Source: Candidatus Poribacteria bacterium | Lineage (GTDB): Bacteria; Poribacteria; WGA-4E; WGA-3G | Assembly (NCBI GenBank): GCA_965197475.1 | Contig: CBDANF010000002.1 | Span: forward strand, 1,120,001-1,184,000 | Direction: 5' to 3' | Length of the DNA stretch: 64,000 bases | Shown here: positions 37,564 through 45,452 of the stretch, in pieces | Position numbering within the stretch: the first letter of the stretch is position 1 | Layout of the letters: every line of letters begins with the position of its first letter | The notes under the pieces: model-generated | What the model was told of the DNA's origin: nothing | Seen by the model: the letters and a program-made list of their open reading frames with translations, nothing else | Database searches by the model: none | Program-made: the position numbers and the translations under genes

Positions 37564-40548
37564 ATGAAAACCATCTTATTTACATTATTTTCAGTAATCT
37601 TATTGTGTGCTATCGTTTTTCATAGCAACGCTTATGACTACCACTGGGAAATAGACGAAACACCAGAAGGAGAGGAAAGTGTTACCGTAGTCGAACCTGT
37701 GCAAGTGACGCTATTAGATGAACAGGTAGAAATATCATCTCATAGTGCATCACTACGTCTGCTCCAAGTATATTCTGTTCACCTCAGATCAGAATGGGAA
37801 TCAGGATACGCACATAGACTATTCCTAACGTTTGAATCAATTCCGCAACAAAAGAATCCTCTTTATGAAAATCCAGCTCTACAACCGTCTATATGGAAAC
37901 TAAGTAACAGGCACATTCAAAATGACATAGAGATTGAATACTCGGGTGATACTAAAATTGTCACCATTGCCGCCGATGCTTTTACTTATGCGACCCCTTT
38001 GTTAGCCGAAATCGAAGGCGTGCGTGGTAGGTACTTCTCCAAACGACTCCACCGGGCAGTGGTTCGGTACGTAACAGACAATGGGGCGGATAGAAACACT
38101 ATTAAACGTATACTTCGAAAAAGGTACGCCGTTAGTATAGATGTCCCTGATTATATTGAACTTACAAAGTATACAACAGGTGAACATGCGGGTCGTTTCT
38201 CAACATTCAAAGATGAAGAACTAATGGCTCTCGTATCAATGTTTGAGGAGTTTCCGCAAGGCATGCTTAAAACACCCGGATTAAAATATTTGGTTAGACG
38301 TTTAGATGGAACACCACATCCGCTTTATCCGACCGCGCCTGCAGTCGCGTGGCCGAGTGCAGGCTACATTGAATTTATGGAAGCTGCTTTTATAGGAGGC
38401 AGTCCTGATTACATGCATCGCTTGATTCTGCATGAAAAGGCACATTTCCTATGGGCACACCTTTTTGACGAACAACTTAAACAGGATTGGATTGAACTCG
38501 GCGGCTGGTTTCGAAATCCGGACGACGCTGATGGGTGGTCTACGACTAAGCAAACAGAGTTTGTTTCGGCGTACGCACACGCCAAAAATCCTAATGAAGA
38601 TATGGCGGAGAGTATCAGTTTTTATATCATAAGACCTGACAAGCTACGTTCTCGTTCACCTGCTAAATACGAATTTATTCAAAATCGGATAATGCACGGC
38701 ACGCGCTACATCTCACAAATACGCGAGGACTTGACTTTTGTGGTCTACAATCTTTATCCTGATTATGTGTATCCTGGACGGATTGTAAGAGTTGACATAC
38801 AAGTGGATGGTGAACCCGAAGAAGATAAGATGATTACAGTCGAAATAGAAATTCATAGAGAGAGCCAATTGGATTCAGCGCGAGGTGTATTTATTAGACT
38901 TTTTAGTGAAAAAGGCACGTTCTTTGATGTTTGGCTTTCACCTATCAATGCACAAGGACAACGAATTTCTGCGGGGCATGTTTTCAGAGGTTCAATAACA
39001 TTAACACGCTATGCCGCAAATGGTTACTGGGGGCCAGACTCGGTTACTTTAAGTGACGTTTCTGGAAATCAGCGTCATGAATCTGCTCAAACAGATTTTG
39101 GGTGGAAACTCTATATCAACAATCCTCTTGCGGATTGTCAACTTCCAGCGTATGTTAAGGAATCAATGCGTCTTAGCTTATCTCAAGGGATTGAGGAGGA
39201 TAGAACTTTTCACATCATCACCGCACGCTGGCAGATTGTTGAGGATATAGGAATAAGAAATGTATCTGTTCATGTTAACGATGAAAGTAGGGGAACTTAT
39301 TCACACAACGCAAAGAGTTGGAGGAACCCTCAAGTTGCTGCAGGTGGAGGGAGAGGTTACAACCACGAAACAGGTGAAGCTACAGCAGAATTGATTATTC
39401 CTGATTACTACCAAAACGGTAATTATCTGGTCCACTATATTTCTATGGTAGATTTTGCTGGAAACAGAAGCGGTGTGTATTTCTCTAATTTCGACGGGGG
39501 ACTATGGGAAACAGACATAAAACTTGACGAACTACCTGCTTCAATTTATGTTCCGACAATTAATCCTGATAACGCGCCAGTTGTGCTTGATCTGAATAAT
39601 ATTACGATTAAAGCAGAACCGACAAAGCCTGAAGACCCCAATGGTGAAACGATAGTCAATATTACCTTTAGAGTAAAAGACAATATCAGCGGTTATTGGA
39701 AAGCTGATTTACGCCTGCGTGATCCTTTAGGTAATATTCACCAATTCACACACTTTCATTCTGAGCATTACAAAATCTATTTCCATGGAGACCCGAAGGT
39801 ATATGAAACTTACCACAAACAGATTATTTTGCCGGTTGGCAGTATTCCCGGCACATGGGGCCTTGCCGAGATGGTAGTTTTTGATAAGGCACATAATATC
39901 TTACGGGCAGACTTTACTGAAATCGTCCGTTTTGTGGTGGATGATACTATTTATACCCAATCTGATGTCAACGAAGACGGTGAAATTGACATTCGGGATC
40001 TGATTATTGTTGCCCAATCGTTTGAAGACTTCAACGAAAAAGCAGATGTCAACGGTGATGGCACTGTCAATATTTTAGATTTAGTGGAAGTTGCCAGCCA
40101 TCTTGGAGAAGAAGCGGCGGCACCAGCTGCATACAACCCAACTGCTGATCAAATCCAAAGTTGGATCACGCAAGCAATGCAAGAAGATAATGGCAGTCAT
40201 ATCTTCCGTAGAGGTATCCAGGTCCTACAATCTCTCTTACTTAGCCTGCGTCCTGAAACAACTGCTTTGCTGCCTAACTACCCAAATCCGTTTAACCCGG
40301 AAACGTGGATACCTTATCATTTGGCAAACGCCAGCGATGTGCAGATTGCCATTTACGATACGAGAGGGCGCATAGTTCGCACGTTAGCACTCGGGCATCA
40401 GCCCGCAGGCTATTACACAGACAGAGGTCGTGCAGCATATTGGGATGGTCGGAATAGCGTGGGGGAACGTATTGCAAGCGGTGTCTATTTTTATCAACTG
40501 CAGGCGGATTCTATTTCACAACTGCGTAAAATGGTTATTTTGAAATAG
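37564..40548 (+). CDS. Secreted Zn-metallopeptidase-like protein with dockerin/EF-hand repeat and FlgD-like C-terminal domain
   Basis: Signal peptide; HEKAH plus 'FVSAYA...NPNEDMAES'; 'DVNEDGEIDIRDL/DVNGDGTVNILDL'; 'LLPNYPNPFNPETWIPY...GVYFYQL...RKMVILK'. Confidence 0.8.
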   Translation: MKTILFTLFSVILLCAIVFHSNAYDYHWEIDETPEGEESVTVVEPVQVTLLDEQVEISSHSASLRLLQVYSVHLRSEWESGYAHRLFLTFESIPQQKNPLYENPALQPSIWKLSNRHIQNDIEIEYSGDTKIVTIAADAFTYATPLLAEIEGVRGRYFSKRLHRAVVRYVTDNGADRNTIKRILRKRYAVSIDVPDYIELTKYTTGEHAGRFSTFKDEELMALVSMFEEFPQGMLKTPGLKYLVRRLDGTPHPLYPTAPAVAWPSAGYIEFMEAAFIGGSPDYMHRLILHEKAHFLWAHLFDEQLKQDWIELGGWFRNPDDADGWSTTKQTEFVSAYAHAKNPNEDMAESISFYIIRPDKLRSRSPAKYEFIQNRIMHGTRYISQIREDLTFVVYNLYPDYVYPGRIVRVDIQVDGEPEEDKMITVEIEIHRESQLDSARGVFIRLFSEKGTFFDVWLSPINAQGQRISAGHVFRGSITLTRYAANGYWGPDSVTLSDVSGNQRHESAQTDFGWKLYINNPLADCQLPAYVKESMRLSLSQGIEEDRTFHIITARWQIVEDIGIRNVSVHVNDESRGTYSHNAKSWRNPQVAAGGGRGYNHETGEATAELIIPDYYQNGNYLVHYISMVDFAGNRSGVYFSNFDGGLWETDIKLDELPASIYVPTINPDNAPVVLDLNNITIKAEPTKPEDPNGETIVNITFRVKDNISGYWKADLRLRDPLGNIHQFTHFHSEHYKIYFHGDPKVYETYHKQIILPVGSIPGTWGLAEMVVFDKAHNILRADFTEIVRFVVDDTIYTQSDVNEDGEIDIRDLIIVAQSFEDFNEKADVNGDGTVNILDLVEVASHLGEEAAAPAAYNPTADQIQSWITQAMQEDNGSHIFRRGIQVLQSLLLSLRPETTALLPNYPNPFNPETWIPYHLANASDVQIAIYDTRGRIVRTLALGHQPAGYYTDRGRAAYWDGRNSVGERIASGVYFYQLQADSISQLRKMVILK

Positions 40549-40568
40549 TATCAAATGACCATAGGATA

Positions 40569-40740
40569 GCTGGAAGGCTGATGTTCATTGGCTTCCCAGC
40601 GATCGTTGATGAGTGGGTTGCGTTGGGATCGCGAGCATCCTCTTTGAGAAATGATGCGTTTAGCGATAAACGTGTCTAAAGTATAGCAAAACCGGTAGCG
40701 GTTGTCAACCATATTTTCAAGGCACCTGCCCCGGTTTTGC
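40569..40740 (+). ncRNA. Candidate structured RNA in the non-coding end of the DUF1670 element
   Basis: Five consecutive hairpins; G-U pairs and a GCGA (GNRA) tetraloop favour the + strand. Confidence 0.45.
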
Positions 40741-40775
40741 GAAGTAAAGTTCGTCGGGAACATAGGATTAGGGTC

Positions 40776-41660
40776 TCATTGGGCTTCTCCTTGGTGAGTG
40801 GCTTCATCGTTTGAGTCTGAATTGGCAAGGTTTGCATCTATGGCTTGGAGTTGGGGCTGCGGAATCAGGTCCAGATATTGAGTGATAACGCGTTTAGAAA
40901 GTCGGGTGATCTGTGAGATTTTATCAATATCTGTGGTAGCGGTGCGAACGACTTTGACGCTCTCATAATCGCGAATGTATCTATCAACTGCCTCCTTAGA
41001 GTGTTTGGTCTTTGCGGCAATCCTGGGGGTGAGATGTCCTTGAAGATAGAGGGTTATGATCTCTTTCTTATGGGTAATAGCCCCCGATAAGTCATGGATA
41101 TTGCCACGGGTGGGCAAGAGTTCTCCAGTGGTTTTTTGCCATTCATTAACATAATCACAGACAACGGCATCGCAGACATTGAGCAAAACTGCCAAGTCGA
41201 GTTGTGTCAATAATGCCCCTTGGTCATAAGCTTGATGACACCAGCGGACCAAGCGATTGATCCGCAATTGCCGGGAGGTGAAACCGTTTCTAAAAGATTC
41301 AATATCCTCTGCGGCGAGGTAGGTCAGGATGATGGGTTTCATCCGAGTTTTGACGATGGACTTTCCTCTTTCTGGATGTTCATCAATAGGGACGGCCATC
41401 CAAACGAGTTGTCCATAACTTAGGAAACGCTCATCTGGGAGTTGATCACCGGTGGCGAGTTTTTCCAAGGGGAGGGTAATTACGAAATAGTCTTCAACGG
41501 TCTTGAGAATATCATCAACAATGGCGGTGGCAGTGACTTCGCCTTTGTCATACCCGTAGTCATTGAGAAAGCGATGGATAAGCAACTGTCGTAGGGATTT
41601 ATCGTTGATGCGTCTGAATTTCTTCTCGTTGATTTGCGTGCGTGTTAGAGGTTTGCTCAT
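40776..41660 (-). CDS. DUF1670-like HTH protein B
   Basis: 'RLVRWCHQAYDQGALLTQLDLAVLL...PTRGNIHDLSGAITHK...KTKHSKEAVDRY'. Confidence 0.75.
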   Translation of the reverse strand: MSKPLTRTQINEKKFRRINDKSLRQLLIHRFLNDYGYDKGEVTATAIVDDILKTVEDYFVITLPLEKLATGDQLPDERFLSYGQLVWMAVPIDEHPERGKSIVKTRMKPIILTYLAAEDIESFRNGFTSRQLRINRLVRWCHQAYDQGALLTQLDLAVLLNVCDAVVCDYVNEWQKTTGELLPTRGNIHDLSGAITHKKEIITLYLQGHLTPRIAAKTKHSKEAVDRYIRDYESVKVVRTATTDIDKISQITRLSKRVITQYLDLIPQPQLQAIDANLANSDSNDEATHQGEAQ

Positions 41661-42457
41661 GAGAGATCCTCCTTTTTTGTGTCCTCTGGTTCTGGGTGAA
41701 GGAGTTGGGTCATGCGATCGGTGTGTTGATATTCCTTGAACAGCGAGAGATACTCGCGTATCAACCGGTCAGAGAGATGAGAAATCAGGCGTATCTGAGC
41801 GTTAGGGAACCCTTGATGATGGAGCGTGGCAACTTGTGTGAAGTCCCTCAAGTAGCGGTAGACAGCCCGTTCGGAGTGGTTCGTCTTTTGCTCAATCTCG
41901 GTGAAGGTGTATGCTTTGAAGTACAGCTCGAGAATCTGCGTCTTATGAGACAGTCCCGGGCCCATGTCGTGTTTCGCCCCGCGCGTCATCACGAAATAGC
42001 CGGACTGCTTCAACGCTCGGATGTCGCGTTTGACGGTGGCAGGACTGGTGGTTAATAACACCGCCAAATCCTCATAACTCAGCAAGGCTTCTTGGTCATA
42101 AGCTTCTTGGGTCAATCGGAGGATCCGATGCCGTCTGAGTCCTGCGAGCCCATAAGTCGCTAAAACTTCAAGGTCGGCTTCAACATCGTTGAGTTTGAGT
42201 CGACAGGAGACTTTTTTCGCTAAAGCGATGTGTTTGCCTGCGGGTTCCTCAGCGGCGACTGCCTCGTAGCAGATTTGCCCTGATGTGAGTTGCACATCGG
42301 CATGTTGTTCAAAGTAGGTAGAAATCTGTTTATAGTAGGCTTCAGCAACGAGAGGCATGAGATTAAAGTCTGCTGAAATCTTCTGAATAATCGCGGCTCT
42401 GGCATTCTTGGATTCGAGCCGAGTGATACCGTAAGCGGTATCCTTCTTGCGGTTCAT
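41657..42457 (-). CDS. DUF1670-like HTH protein A
   Basis: 'RILRLTQEAYDQEALLSYEDLAVLL...TRGAKHDMGPGLSHK...KTNHSERAVYRY'; GGAGG RBS before ATG 42457; ATGA overlap with gene B. Confidence 0.75.
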   Translation of the reverse strand: MNRKKDTAYGITRLESKNARAAIIQKISADFNLMPLVAEAYYKQISTYFEQHADVQLTSGQICYEAVAAEEPAGKHIALAKKVSCRLKLNDVEADLEVLATYGLAGLRRHRILRLTQEAYDQEALLSYEDLAVLLTTSPATVKRDIRALKQSGYFVMTRGAKHDMGPGLSHKTQILELYFKAYTFTEIEQKTNHSERAVYRYLRDFTQVATLHHQGFPNAQIRLISHLSDRLIREYLSLFKEYQHTDRMTQLLHPEPEDTKKEDLS

Positions 42458-42705
42458 ATTGACCTCCATGAATAGATTATCGGGGATCCGAGGACATCTA
42501 CTCGTTAGTTTAACGAATACTAATAGTATAACTCATGGGGTCATTTGATACAAACTATAAGTAAAGAAATAAGTTGAGTTGGGTTTCGCTGTGCTCTACC
42601 CCGCCAAATGCCATAGGCGTATTTGGCGTTGATTCCCTACACTTGATTTCTTATTTCGAACTCACGTTTACTATAGTTTGGACAATTTCATCCTATCAGG
42701 ACTTC

Positions 42706-43690
42706 GGACCAGGTGTTAAATATGGTTTGTAAGCACACTTGAGACAGCTGCTGGTGTCTATCAAAAAATCATGGCAACACTTTATGATGTCTATTTCCCA
42801 TGCGTAGAAGCACTGCGTCCGGGGCCAAAAAGTCGTTGTCCTGATAGTGAAATTCTCACATTTGTTTGGGCTTCTTGAACTGACAGGAAGATAACGAACT
42901 CACAGGATACAACCTTATCAAGCACAACTCGGACATCTTTTCCCATATTTACCGGAACGCTCTCGCTTCAATCGAAGTATGCGAAACCTGTGCCACGCAA
43001 GCGAAAACTCCGGAGGATTTTGACACAGTTCTTACCAGATGATAGGGTTTTCATTGTAGATAGTTTTCCTATCCCGGTTTGCGATTTCAAGCGTGCTGCG
43101 ACTTCTACATCGTCTCTAAAATGTGCTGATGGCACCGGCACCTCGGCAACTTATGGAAAGTGTGCCACAAAAAGGCTTGACACTTTCTTAAGGTTTCGTG
43201 GTAGTCTGATAACCACCGTTTACGAACTATCTGTTGATTTGTGGTCGCCACTGCGGATACAGATGATCAAGAAATGCTCAGCTTACTATGTGAACGCGGC
43301 ACTTGTCCTATTATCCTTGGAGATAAAGGATATTTCCGAGTAACTTGAGACTGATTTACTTGAAACAGACAATGTGCGTCTTTTACCGACGCGGTGTCCA
43401 AATCAGAAAACACAATACCCAAAGCCGTTTCGGAAGTTGCACGGTAAAACGGTGGCGGATTGAGACGACTATCAGTCAACTCACAAATCAGTTTAATGTT
43501 TCACAAATACGCGCCCGCGCTCATTGAAGTTTTCAAACACGGTTGAGCAATAAGTTGATGGTTGGACATTAGGTGTTTTTTGAATCAATATTTAGGATGC
43601 CCGTTAATGGCACTCAAAGATGTCGTTTATACATAAACAATTTCAAAAAAGATAGAAACATATTACAAAAAGTTAACTAACACAAGGCGT
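42706..43690 (+). pseudogene. IS982-family transposase relic with multiple frameshifts
   Basis: Fragments 'PDSEILT', 'ERSRFNR', 'IVDSFPIPVC', 'GDKGYIS', 'RWRIETTISQL'; degenerate TIRs, boundaries approximate. Confidence 0.75.
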
Positions 43691-43709
43691 TATTTCTCAG
43701 GAGGTATTC

Positions 43710-45452
43710 ATGAATAATCCAAAATCTGGCTCAAAAAACCCTAAAAGCAAAACAAACACAAAAGAAAACGGCAATAACATATCTGATACAAACTTTATCC
43801 GACAAGCAATTGAAGAAGATATAGCATCAAATAGATTTGATGGGAGGGTGCATACCCGATTTCCTCCCGAACCGAGTGGATACCTCCATATCGGTCACGC
43901 CAAAGCCATCTGTATTAGTTTCGGCATCGCCGAAGACTATGGCGGACTTTACAACCTCCGATTCGACGACAGTAATCCGATCACAGAAGAGAGTGAATAC
44001 GTAGAAGCGATTAAACGGGATGTCCGTTGGCTCGGATTTAATTGGGAGGAACGCGAATTCCATGCCTCTGACTATTTCGAAACACTTTATGAATATGCTG
44101 TCAAACTGATAGAGAAAGGGAAAGCTTACGTCTGTGATCTGACACCAGAGGAAACGCGCACTTATCGTGGCACTTTAGTGACAGCCGGCAAAGATAGTCC
44201 CTACCGAAACCGTTCTATTGAAGAAAATCTAACGTTGTTCCGTGGGATGTGCGATGGTAAATTTTCCGACGGTTCTCGTACTCTCCGCGCCAAAATTGAT
44301 ATGACAAGTCCGAATTTAAATATGCGCGACCCTGTGATGTATCGTGTTCTCCACACCCCACACTATCGACATGGGACCAATTGGTGCATCTATCCTACCT
44401 ACGATTTCACACATGGACAATCCGATTCGATCGAAGGCGTTACACATTCCTTATGTGACGTTCAGTTTGAAGATCATCGTCCGTTATATGACTGGTTTTT
44501 GGAATCGTTGGAAATTTACTCACCTCGACAGATTGAATTTGCTCGACTGAACCTTACCTACACTATACTTGGTAAGCGGAAACTCAAAATCCTCGTTGAA
44601 CAAGGACACGTCAAAGGGTGGGACGATCCGAGACTACCCACACTTGCGGGTATGCGTCGTCGCGGTTATACCCCTGAATCTATTCGAGATTTTTGCAACC
44701 GCATTGGTGTGTCGAAAGCCAATAATCTCATTGAGATCGGACAACTTGAATACTCTATCCGCGATGATCTGAATCGTCGTGCGCCTCGTGTGATGGCTGT
44801 GCTGAATCCGGTCAAAGTTACTATTGATAACTATCCAGAAGGACAAGTTGAGATGCTTGATGCTGACAATAACCCGGAAGATGAAAACGCAGGGGCAAGG
44901 ACAATCCCTTTCTCACGAGAAATCTACATTGAACGTGAAGATTTTATGGAAGATCCGCCACGAAAATTTTATAGACTTGCCCCCGGACGAGAGGTTCGGC
45001 TTAAACATGCATACTATATCACCTGCGACCACGTTGTTAAAGATGAAAACACTGGTGAAATCGTTGATATCCACTGCACTTATGATCCAAAAACTCGTGG
45101 TGGTTGGTCTGATGACGGACGGAGGGTACAAGGCACACTGCACTGGGTTTCTGCTGAACATGCTGTTGATGCTGAGGTGCGCCTATACGGTTCGCTCTTT
45201 ACAGAGCGCGAACCGGAAAACGTAGCGGATGGCACCGATTGGATACAATTCCTCAATCCGAATTCTTTAGAGATTCTAAATAATTGCAAGGTTGAACCGA
45301 GTCTTGTTGAGGCAATGCCTGAAAGTCGATATCAGTTCCTACGGATGGGATATTTTTGCGTTGATCCAGACACAACACCAGAAAAATCGGTATTCAATCG
45401 TACAGTACCGCTGCGGGATAGCTGGGCAAAAATTCAGAAAGGACAGAAATGA
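43710..45452 (+). CDS. glnS: Glutamine--tRNA ligase
   Basis: '[18 protein letters not shown]', '[10 protein letters not shown]', 'YQFLRMGYF'. Confidence 0.97.

Follow-up and report, generated by a model that had tools for sequence, protein, structure and literature searches.

The window analyzed here is a stretch of 64,000 nucleotides (nt) from the genome of a Candidatus Poribacteria bacterium (contig CBDANF010000002.1, positions 1,120,001 to 1,184,000 of the forward strand). It contains an insertion sequence of 2,014 base pairs (bp) at window positions 40545-42558, which has 16-nt inverted ends, is flanked by a 2-bp AA duplication and carries two genes, A and B, both of the DUF1670 family. 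The subject of our analysis is the segment 40561-40775, the gene-distal non-coding arm of this element, which lies between the left inverted repeat (40545-40560) and the stop codon of gene B (40776). An earlier description of this segment, based on a single sequence and called the original prediction below, drew five hairpins and proposed that they belong to a plus-strand RNA that might serve the DUF1670 proteins as a guide-type cofactor. Our comparisons point in another direction. We propose that the arm carries a promoter that faces outward on the minus strand and that hairpins 4 to 1 form the body of a minus-strand end transcript, which would be regulatory and not a guide, and we give this reading a probability of about 0.5.

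The element and its insertion site

The boundaries of the element were defined from the junctions of its copies, from empty sites in related genomes and from the AA flanks. In the genome of our organism the 2.0-kb unit was matched over at least 1,700 nt, with 93-100% identity, at 19 places, besides one internally deleted mini-copy. The left junction reads AAATAG and then the inverted repeat in 20 of 20 copies, and the right junction reads CTAT and then AAR-TRR in 19 of 20. Nine orthologous loci were located in sister genomes; eight are empty sites reading ...AA(G/A)TAA with a single AA and one carries the element. When 87 loci were scanned, AA was present on both sides in all 74 loci for which both ends were found. 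The unit thus shows the general characters of an insertion sequence, namely multiple copies, terminal inverted repeats, a target duplication and empty sites in relatives.

The target is the end of a gene. The insertion falls inside the last Lys codon of a type IX secretion cargo gene, and the ATAG brought by the element rebuilds AAA-TAG (Lys-stop), so that the element itself completes both the last Lys codon and the stop of the host gene, which carries a type IX secretion C-terminal sorting domain. A profile of 65 secretion-gene sites is codon-periodic (Thr-Arg-Lys-Met-x-Ile/Leu-x-Lys-stop) with all four bases at the wobble positions. ATG stands at -14 to -12 before the AA in 59 of 73 genome loci and in 26 of 79 metagenome loci with the left-end motif, and in 59 of the 73 genome loci the secretion-gene ending points into this (left) end. 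A further 29 loci with a readable flank all end in AA and, read by eye, nearly all show the secretion-gene pattern. The same target was seen at one Gemmatimonadota contig, at one Zixibacteria contig and at many metagenome contigs. One sub-lineage (L084-L087, L089 and L097) inserts instead in the AA of a palindrome loop with a 13-bp stem; two genomes (G035 and G026) contain 40 and 26 occurrences of this palindrome, which in this respect resembles a repetitive extragenic palindrome.

Left arms were collected by means of the left-end motif downstream of gene B, which was found in 53 of 67 loci; together with the window this gave 54 arms, 40 of them distinct, and one arm of 51 nt was left out to give the set of 39 arms used below. 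The left inverted repeat is invariant in these arms save at position 10. Its 13-nt motif occurs at 41 places in the genome of our organism, of which 40 are at copies of the element and the remaining one, with 1 mismatch, lies outside the listed copies (C3:1142535). Another class of element with the same inverted repeat that mobilizes this one in trans was considered and rejected on these counts. Since the motif is essentially confined to copies of the element, A and B are likely its transposition proteins. Three mini-copies, L020 (G000:C3:94115-94563, about 450 bp), L271 (about 367 bp) and L293 (about 765 bp), retain both ends and lie at secretion-gene ends; they are candidates for non-autonomous derivatives.

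The outward promoter and the fold of the arm

A sigma-70-type promoter facing outward is found inside the left end (Table 1). It matches the consensus at 11 of 12 positions and has the TG of an extended -10; it is the best site in 40300-42800 and one of two sites with 11/12 matches plus TG in the 64-kb window. Its parts are conserved among the copies of the element. TATACT is present in 39 of the 39 distinct arms, the TG in 38, and a -35 hexamer that agrees with the consensus at 5 or 6 of its 6 positions in 36 of 38. Spacer length is 17 nt (23 arms), 18 nt (15 arms) or 16 nt (one arm), and the spacer sequence diverges between sub-lineages. The distance from the -10 to the terminus is 134-136 nt in 35 of 39 arms (usually 135) and 102-103 nt in three, and within the arm only the inverted repeat forms a longer invariant stretch than the -10 block. 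Our promoter scan of the arm found no conserved promoter on the plus strand. The predicted minus-strand promoter is the only conserved promoter of the arm and its strongest feature, and the strand assigned by the original prediction, in which the RNA ran convergent with the two genes, does not agree with it.

According to our proposal, the extended -10 promoter would fire outward on the minus strand, towards the left end of the element. Because it points out of the element across hairpins 4 to 1, we take hairpins 4, 3, (2) and 1, which occupy the roughly 130 nt between the predicted start (about 40675) and the terminus, as the body of a minus-strand transcript. The hairpins, with the 5' stem-loop first, could give this end RNA stability or protein contacts. 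Two regulatory roles appear the most likely ones. The RNA or its transcription may oppose or insulate the convergent transcription that arrives from the host secretion gene, or the RNA may serve genes A and B as a strong leader after the two ends meet in a circle or a tandem copy.

Table 1. Coordinates of the features of the element and its left flank (window positions)
Feature	Position	Strand	Remarks
Host gene, 994-aa secreted protein	37564-40548	+	open reading frame; Pfam Por_Secre_tail, FlgD_ig, Dockerin_1
Left AA target duplication	40543-40544		right copy at 42559-42560
Left terminal inverted repeat ATAGTATCAAATGACC	40545-40560		pairs with 42539-42564; first four bases after AA give AAA-TAG
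Predicted minus-strand end transcript	40545-40675	-	start about 40675 +/- 2; would run through hairpins 4 to 1 and the inverted repeat; placed from the promoter
Hairpin 1, with outer GAT/ATC pairs	40565-40604		best conserved hairpin
Hairpin 2 (as in the original prediction)	40599-40632		not conserved
Hairpin 3, GCATC/GATGC	40635-40657		conserved; enclosed in a UCGCx/xGCGA helix in the family consensus
Hairpin 4	40657-40672		would be the extreme 5' end of the predicted minus-strand transcript
Sigma-70-type promoter, facing outward	40680-40708	-	-35 TTGACA 40708-40703; 17-nt spacer; TG 40688-40687; -10 TATACT 40685-40680
Hairpin 5	40686-40740		A-tract, long stem, T-tract; straddles the promoter
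Gene B, DUF1670, 294 aa	40776-41660	-	Pfam PF07900, E 1.5e-61
Gene A, DUF1670, paralogue of B	41657-42469	-	PF07900, E 1.1e-60; 35% identity to B
Right arm	42470-42558	-	inverted repeat 42539-42558, candidate weak promoter, hairpin, GGAGG (39 distinct right ends aligned)

The five hairpins of the original prediction are all present at the coordinates given for them, in the space from the left inverted repeat to the gene B stop codon, and the 39 arms show which of them are kept. Hairpin 1 is 81-88% paired, with the states C-G, U-G, U-A and C.A in its inner stem. Hairpin 3 is 89% paired, and the helix that encloses it is 88% paired and changes from C-G to A-U in 6 arms. Hairpin 4 (71% paired, U-A to G-C in 10 arms) competes with this enclosing helix, and only 49% of cells are paired in hairpin 2, whose region is deleted in the short arms L071-L073; the enclosing helix fits the 39 arms better than either of them. 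Hairpin 5 is 87% paired. With all five hairpins as first drawn, 79.7% of cells are paired and the covariation score is 0.136 against 0.094 for shuffled alignments, none of 500 shuffles being as high; a consensus of hairpin 1, hairpin 3 and the UCGCx/xGCGA helix raises the pairing to 90.6% with a covariation of 0.136-0.141 over the structures tried and again 0 of 500 shuffles as high, although in such a test related sequences can beat every shuffle without any structure.

Consensus folding gave a clearer signal for the family than folding of the single sequence did. With RNAalifold and RIBOSUM scoring, the 34 long arms gave a structure conservation index (SCI) of 1.09 on the plus strand (z -4.95) and 1.05 on the minus strand (z -3.66), the z scores being relative to column-shuffled controls. 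For 47 distinct long arms from three collections the SCI was 1.21 on both strands (z -5.15 plus, -4.55 minus), and 0 of 40 column shuffles were as low on either strand. The window's own sequence, folded over 40549-40780, reached -73.8 kcal/mol on the plus strand against -62.8 +/- 4.4 for shuffles (z -2.47) and -59.4 kcal/mol on the minus strand against -48.3 +/- 4.1 (z -2.73), with 2 of 200 shuffles as good in each case. Single-sequence structure is modestly above chance and is not strand-specific. What was described as dense structure thus holds in part: the excess is real but modest in the single sequence and a family fold is supported, but hairpin 2 does not belong to it.

The arm is non-coding, as originally stated; its longest open frame switches strand and frame among the 39 arms, and a small protein encoded in the arm was rejected for the same reason. 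Over element positions 1-128 the arm has 82-99% identity to relatives in which the genes have 86-95%; the fastest evolving part of the arm is positions 165-231, and the three short arms have lost about 34 nt. The direct repeat CATAGGAT at 40560 and 40761, also noted in the original prediction, is real and brackets the module (the part of the arm between its two copies) exactly. It is exact in only 3 of 39 arms, and in other lineages the second copy still matches at 5-8 of 8 positions; by simple arithmetic, chance alone would give about 0.4 such 8-mer repeats in 231 nt. Searches with the Rfam covariance models returned 0 matches at E <= 1 in 38000-45000, and in 40530-40790 only two chance microRNA matches (E 2.7 and 6.5).

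Hairpin 5 has to be considered apart from the other four, as it lies across the promoter. Its stem is followed by TTTTGC on the plus strand and by TTTTGCTATACTTT on the minus strand, and the minus-strand sequence would be suitable for terminating gene B. Seven lineages were folded; the stable hairpin-5 fold appears in the window, L047 and L053, a different hairpin takes its place in L075, and L089 folds differently. The terminator scan did not call hairpin 5. In the lineage of the window it is a candidate terminator of gene B, and it possibly also stops read-through from the host gene.

Among 80 metagenome loci with the left-end motif, 13 have a homologue of gene B (53-77% identity) within 1.5 kb, and their arms measure 32-190 nt. 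Most folds of these 13, inspected by eye and unscored, show no hairpin-1-like stem beside the inverted repeat. A secretion-gene-type site is occupied by 7 of the 12 with readable flanks, by the Gemmatimonadota element, which has a 51-nt arm and is the one full copy in its genome, and by the Zixibacteria element. The module itself is present in 65 of 159 genomes of the order and directly adjoins the inverted repeat in 30 of 30 further loci inspected in sister genomes; stand-alone copies were seen neither in the genome of our organism nor in the 159 genomes. As read from these sequence comparisons, the module of about 190 nt is an addition made to the arm in the Poribacteria lineage.

Weighing the possible functions

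Several results weigh against an outward end transcript. The promoter was identified under the assumption that the sigma-70 consensus is valid for Poribacteria, and this consensus may not be the one used by the host. None of the 13 metagenome relatives has the TATACT/-35 arrangement, which makes the promoter accessory to the element. The predicted transcript region, taken as 40545-40673 (129 nt), only weakly beats shuffles on the minus strand (z -1.89, 6 of 200 as good; the plus strand gives z -1.07 and 27 of 200), and the terminator scan found no canonical terminator after hairpin 1. A consensus fold on all 39 arms, short ones included, gave only 3 pairs, and hairpin 5 is absent in L087 and L045. 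Pairing on the plus strand is as good or better, with each strand's own consensus 89-91% paired; the structure does not favour the minus over the plus strand, and by the same figures the G-U pairs cited in the original prediction do not favour the plus strand. Pairing of the arm with the start region of gene A was not significant in 20 elements (z -3.5 to +2.5, mostly about 0), in a test that was crude, as duplexfold gave implausibly long duplexes. Finally, a head-to-tail junction, which the leader role calls for, turned up in a single one of 159 genomes, next to a degenerate copy, and in 0 metagenome contigs. In that instance (L076/L118, G079:C1:247727-247753) a copy is followed by AA and then by the left end of a degenerate second copy.

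Two variants of the outward transcript were considered and set aside. A trans-acting RNA that pairs with the start region of gene A was rejected on the z scores just given, and a promoter assembled across the joined ends was rejected when the two ends, read by eye, offered no hexamer pair at proper spacing. The original prediction had named an antisense or terminator module as its fallback; this comes close to the outward end transcript that we propose.

Classical insertion sequences have outward promoters and end transcripts, such as pOUT/RNA-OUT of IS10, and circle-forming elements (the IS3-family pathway, PMC3219604) use strong promoters. Our arm resembles these systems in having a sigma-70-type promoter a short way inside the end, facing outward, and a structured RNA, here predicted, with a 5' stem-loop, and the promoter could drive the transposase genes after the ends are joined. 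It differs in that the promoter lies at the 3' end of the gene pair and on the same strand, so that the RNA is not antisense to the transposase mRNA, in that the promoter is complete, not assembled at a junction, and in that joined ends are as rare as stated above. Among known systems, then, the arm would work most nearly as classical insertion sequences do with their outward promoters and end transcripts, but with the promoter placed 3' of the gene pair.

The alternative that best withstands the evidence places the function of the arm in its DNA, and we consider it rather unlikely. Here the arm would hold sub-terminal DUF1670 binding sites or palindromes that assemble the transposition complex at the left end, the hairpins would be operators or single-stranded DNA structures, and any RNA would be incidental. 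Such a function would suit A and B as DNA binders with several helix-turn-helix domains, and strand-neutral pairing is what double-stranded palindromes are expected to show. The internally deleted mini-copies keep the arm, and among its best conserved short stretches are some that lie in loops or outside any stem. Motifs of the AATGA type, akin to the inner part of the inverted repeat, stand at element positions about 9-15, 64-69 and 104-110, and the right arm has them too (CCATGAG, ATGAGTTA), oriented alike with respect to the terminus. A 5-mer motif, however, is weak evidence, and in the short arms the distance between two of the motifs drops from about 40 to about 9 nt. Binding sites alone leave the invariant promoter with its conserved spacing unexplained. 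The compensatory changes (C-G to U-A, U-A to G-C) also count against them, as half-sites of a binding site are normally conserved and not swapped, and so do the 13 shorter-arm relatives, which have no such promoter and mostly no visible hairpin-1-like stem; 7 of the 12 with readable flanks occupy a secretion-gene-type site.

It is unlikely that the hairpins act in a plus-strand RNA as the new 3' untranslated region of the host gene, in which they would stabilize the mRNA and hairpin 5 would halt read-through into the antisense of B and A. The geometry is suitable, with the secretion-gene ending directed into this end at most loci and with the insertion moving the host gene's own downstream region away by 2 kb. 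The plus-strand fold is also the more stable one, both in the single sequence and in the alignments (alifold energies -38.0 for 34 arms and -43.7 for 47 arms, z about -5), and hairpin 1 has three G-U pairs and a GCGA tetraloop occurs on this strand. One helix, between the inverted repeat and GGGTTG.GTTGG, can form only on the plus strand; it is 93% paired, with U-G to U-A as its only changes. At the family level, though, the minus strand pairs equally well. There is no conserved plus-strand promoter in the arm, no U-tract follows hairpin 1 and only TTTT follows hairpin 5, and the terminator scan calls neither. The elements in palindrome loops, which are not at gene ends, keep the module, and a plus-strand function does not explain the invariant promoter opposed to it.

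Still less probable, in our view, is a mostly neutral arm, in which the promoter is real and the hairpins are due to chance or hitch-hiking in a lineage-specific insertion. This insertion could have been a small element that entered a short arm of the ancestor and left CATAGGAT as its duplication. The lineage-specific module, its exact bracketing by repeats whose second copy is largely retained elsewhere, the modest fold of the single sequence and the loss of about 34 nt from the short arms are all compatible with this history. It is difficult to reconcile with positions 1-128, which are conserved like coding DNA, or with the column shuffles, none of which folds as well as the arms. No inverted ends are visible on the insert, and a module that moved by itself is at odds with its absence as a stand-alone sequence from the 159 genomes and with its place beside the inverted repeat at all 30 inspected loci.

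The remaining alternative is the one favored by the original prediction, a guide-type cofactor (bridge, seek or omega-like RNA) that pairs with the target and the element ends and directs insertion. According to a study of IS1111 and IS110 elements (PMC11187229), these encode a DEDD transposase, their seekRNA contains short stretches matching the target on both of its strands, and the choice of target goes with the non-coding region. It is also characteristic of such systems that the RNA is needed for transposition and is purified together with the transposase. Our element is similar to them in the long non-coding region beside the transposase genes of a site-specific element, which in IS1111 and here is downstream of the gene. 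It differs in its two DUF1670 helix-turn-helix proteins in place of a DEDD transposase and in its arm, where neither target-matching RNA words nor a change of arm linked to a change of target was found; it also has clear terminal inverted repeats and a 2-bp duplication. IS110 and IS1111 elements often target palindromes, and one sub-lineage here targets a repeated palindrome. The omega (right-end) RNA of the TnpB and IscB elements of IS200/IS605 originates from the 3' end of the element and extends past it into the flank. A promoter-driven RNA from the 3' end of our element, as predicted, would have this layout, but here there is no RuvC-type nuclease gene, and inverted repeats and a target duplication are present. 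Pfam searches and a fold search of B found no DEDD-type transposase, TnpB, IscB or RuvC-type nuclease among the element proteins.

The sequence of the arm gives no indication of a guide. A 27-nt target profile run against both strands of the element scored 1.2 at best, compared with a mean of 31.2 for real targets and -0.3 +/- 3.9 for shuffled elements. The longest exact words common to each site and its own arm averaged 7.05 nt against 6.58 nt for shuffled targets, and recurring words were short and lineage-bound. The weak target-like words are GATGTTTATT at the tip of hairpin 1 and GAAGTAAAG at 40742-40750; at the tip of hairpin 1 a 14-nt sub-profile scored 9-10 of 21.2 bits, with coding DNA equal or higher, and the word was missing from the top four matches in 9 of 17 elements. 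No swap of the arm accompanies a change of target: an element at a secretion-gene end (L074) and one in a palindrome loop (L087) are 96% identical over the first 100 nt and 91% over the next 100. A guide encoded in the arm was rejected on the lack of a profile match and of an arm swap with changed target. If the guide were copied from the flank, as in the omega type, recent copies should lie in look-alike flanks, and they do not; after pairs with identical flanks were dropped, 73 element pairs at least 99.5% identical had flanks 62.0% identical over 20 nt, compared with 65.3% for 1,304 pairs less than 90% identical. Moreover, a codon-periodic target with free wobble positions suits read-out by a protein and not contiguous pairing, and of the short-arm relatives, which lack the promoter, most of those with readable flanks use the same type of site. 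The guide reading failed every test run, and we regard a guide-type cofactor as extremely improbable.

The DUF1670 genes and the meaning of the arm

Apart from DUF1670, the Pfam matches of the proteins encoded by A and B are weak helix-turn-helix families only (HTH_29 and HTH_23, both below cut-off). An AlphaFold2 model of B (mean predicted local distance difference test score 87.3, predicted template modelling score 0.67) is mostly helical with one small beta hairpin. Compared with solved structures, this model had no match below E 0.1, and the weak matches were helix-turn-helix proteins, the DNA-binding domain of Tc3 transposase being a weak match at rank 50 (probability 0.63). Protein B had no NCBIfam match and no sequence match in the Protein Data Bank (PDB), and leads from a protein atlas were limited to the HTH_23 type and stayed below 0.9. 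At E <= 0.001 there are matches to about 1,004 cluster representatives, and B-like proteins are annotated as 'DUF1670 domain-containing protein' or 'hypothetical protein'. Our literature search, which covered sources other than ISfinder and supplementary files, found no paper that mentions DUF1670 or PF07900, and nothing relevant to insertion sequences at type IX secretion gene ends was among the matches listed.

An alignment of 51 DUF1670 proteins (24-81% identity) shows that A144, H197, K198, H220 and Y228 of protein B are invariant and that R139, Q147, D155, R185, D190 and Y262 are nearly so; all lie within residues 139-262 (40875-41246, minus strand). A conserved polar set of this kind would not be expected in a protein that only binds DNA, and there was no match to a known catalytic fold. 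Four proteins of 930-952 aa (P0014, P0015, P0020 and P0025) have three DUF1670 stretches each and are fused forms of the family. The loci L104 and L107 were considered as a second DUF1670 element for comparison and were rejected, L104 being a solitary gene and not a repeat. With IS630/Tc1-mariner elements our element shares terminal inverted repeats, a 2-bp duplication that is always the same dinucleotide and helix-turn-helix domains in pairs (weak matches here); its duplication is AA and not TA, no DDE domain is detectable, and the target is specific and about 25 bp long.

At the other end of the element, the right arm has a candidate weak promoter, TTGTAT (42553-42548) and TATACT (42530-42525) with a 17-nt spacer, which overlaps the inverted repeat and is below the threshold of the scan. 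It also has a conserved GATG..CATC hairpin with compensatory changes and a GGAGG ribosome-binding site. The list of open reading frames starts gene A at the ATG at 42469, and the GGAGG lies inside that run, five bases before a second ATG at 42457, which is likely the real start.

Some observations concern the surroundings of the window copy. This copy and L001 (G000:C3:847207-847442) have at least 240 nt of identical right flank (window 42565-42800) and different left flanks, which suggests recombination between copies or a duplicated block. Part of this flank, about 42574-42742, is a short repeat found at many places in the genome. Further on, at 42990-43343 (plus strand), there is a 117-aa open frame with no Pfam match, which may resemble the N-terminus of a DDE transposase and is possibly the remnant of a neighbouring insertion sequence. 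Many contigs with a gene B homologue measure 1.9-2.1 kb, the size of the element, as expected of a multi-copy repeat that assembles on its own.

A more far-reaching interpretation is that the DUF1670 pair represents an undescribed kind of transposase with no known catalytic fold, which in several phyla seeks out the region around the stop codon of type IX cargo genes, and that Poribacteria recruited a promoter-driven, guide-less end RNA as a protein-bound scaffold or switch that controls the use of the left end. We consider this combination a long shot.

Taken alone, the segment is the regulatory arm of an insertion sequence, an arm of a known kind, with an unusually clean conserved outward promoter and a conserved, hairpin-rich predicted transcript. 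The notable part is its owner, in which two DUF1670 genes of unknown function act as the only genes of a mobile element. If the end RNA does bind the DUF1670 proteins, this would be an RNA-assisted transposition system that works without a guide. Otherwise, the arm would be a compact natural case of how transcriptional traffic is handled where an element always sits tail-to-tail with a host gene.

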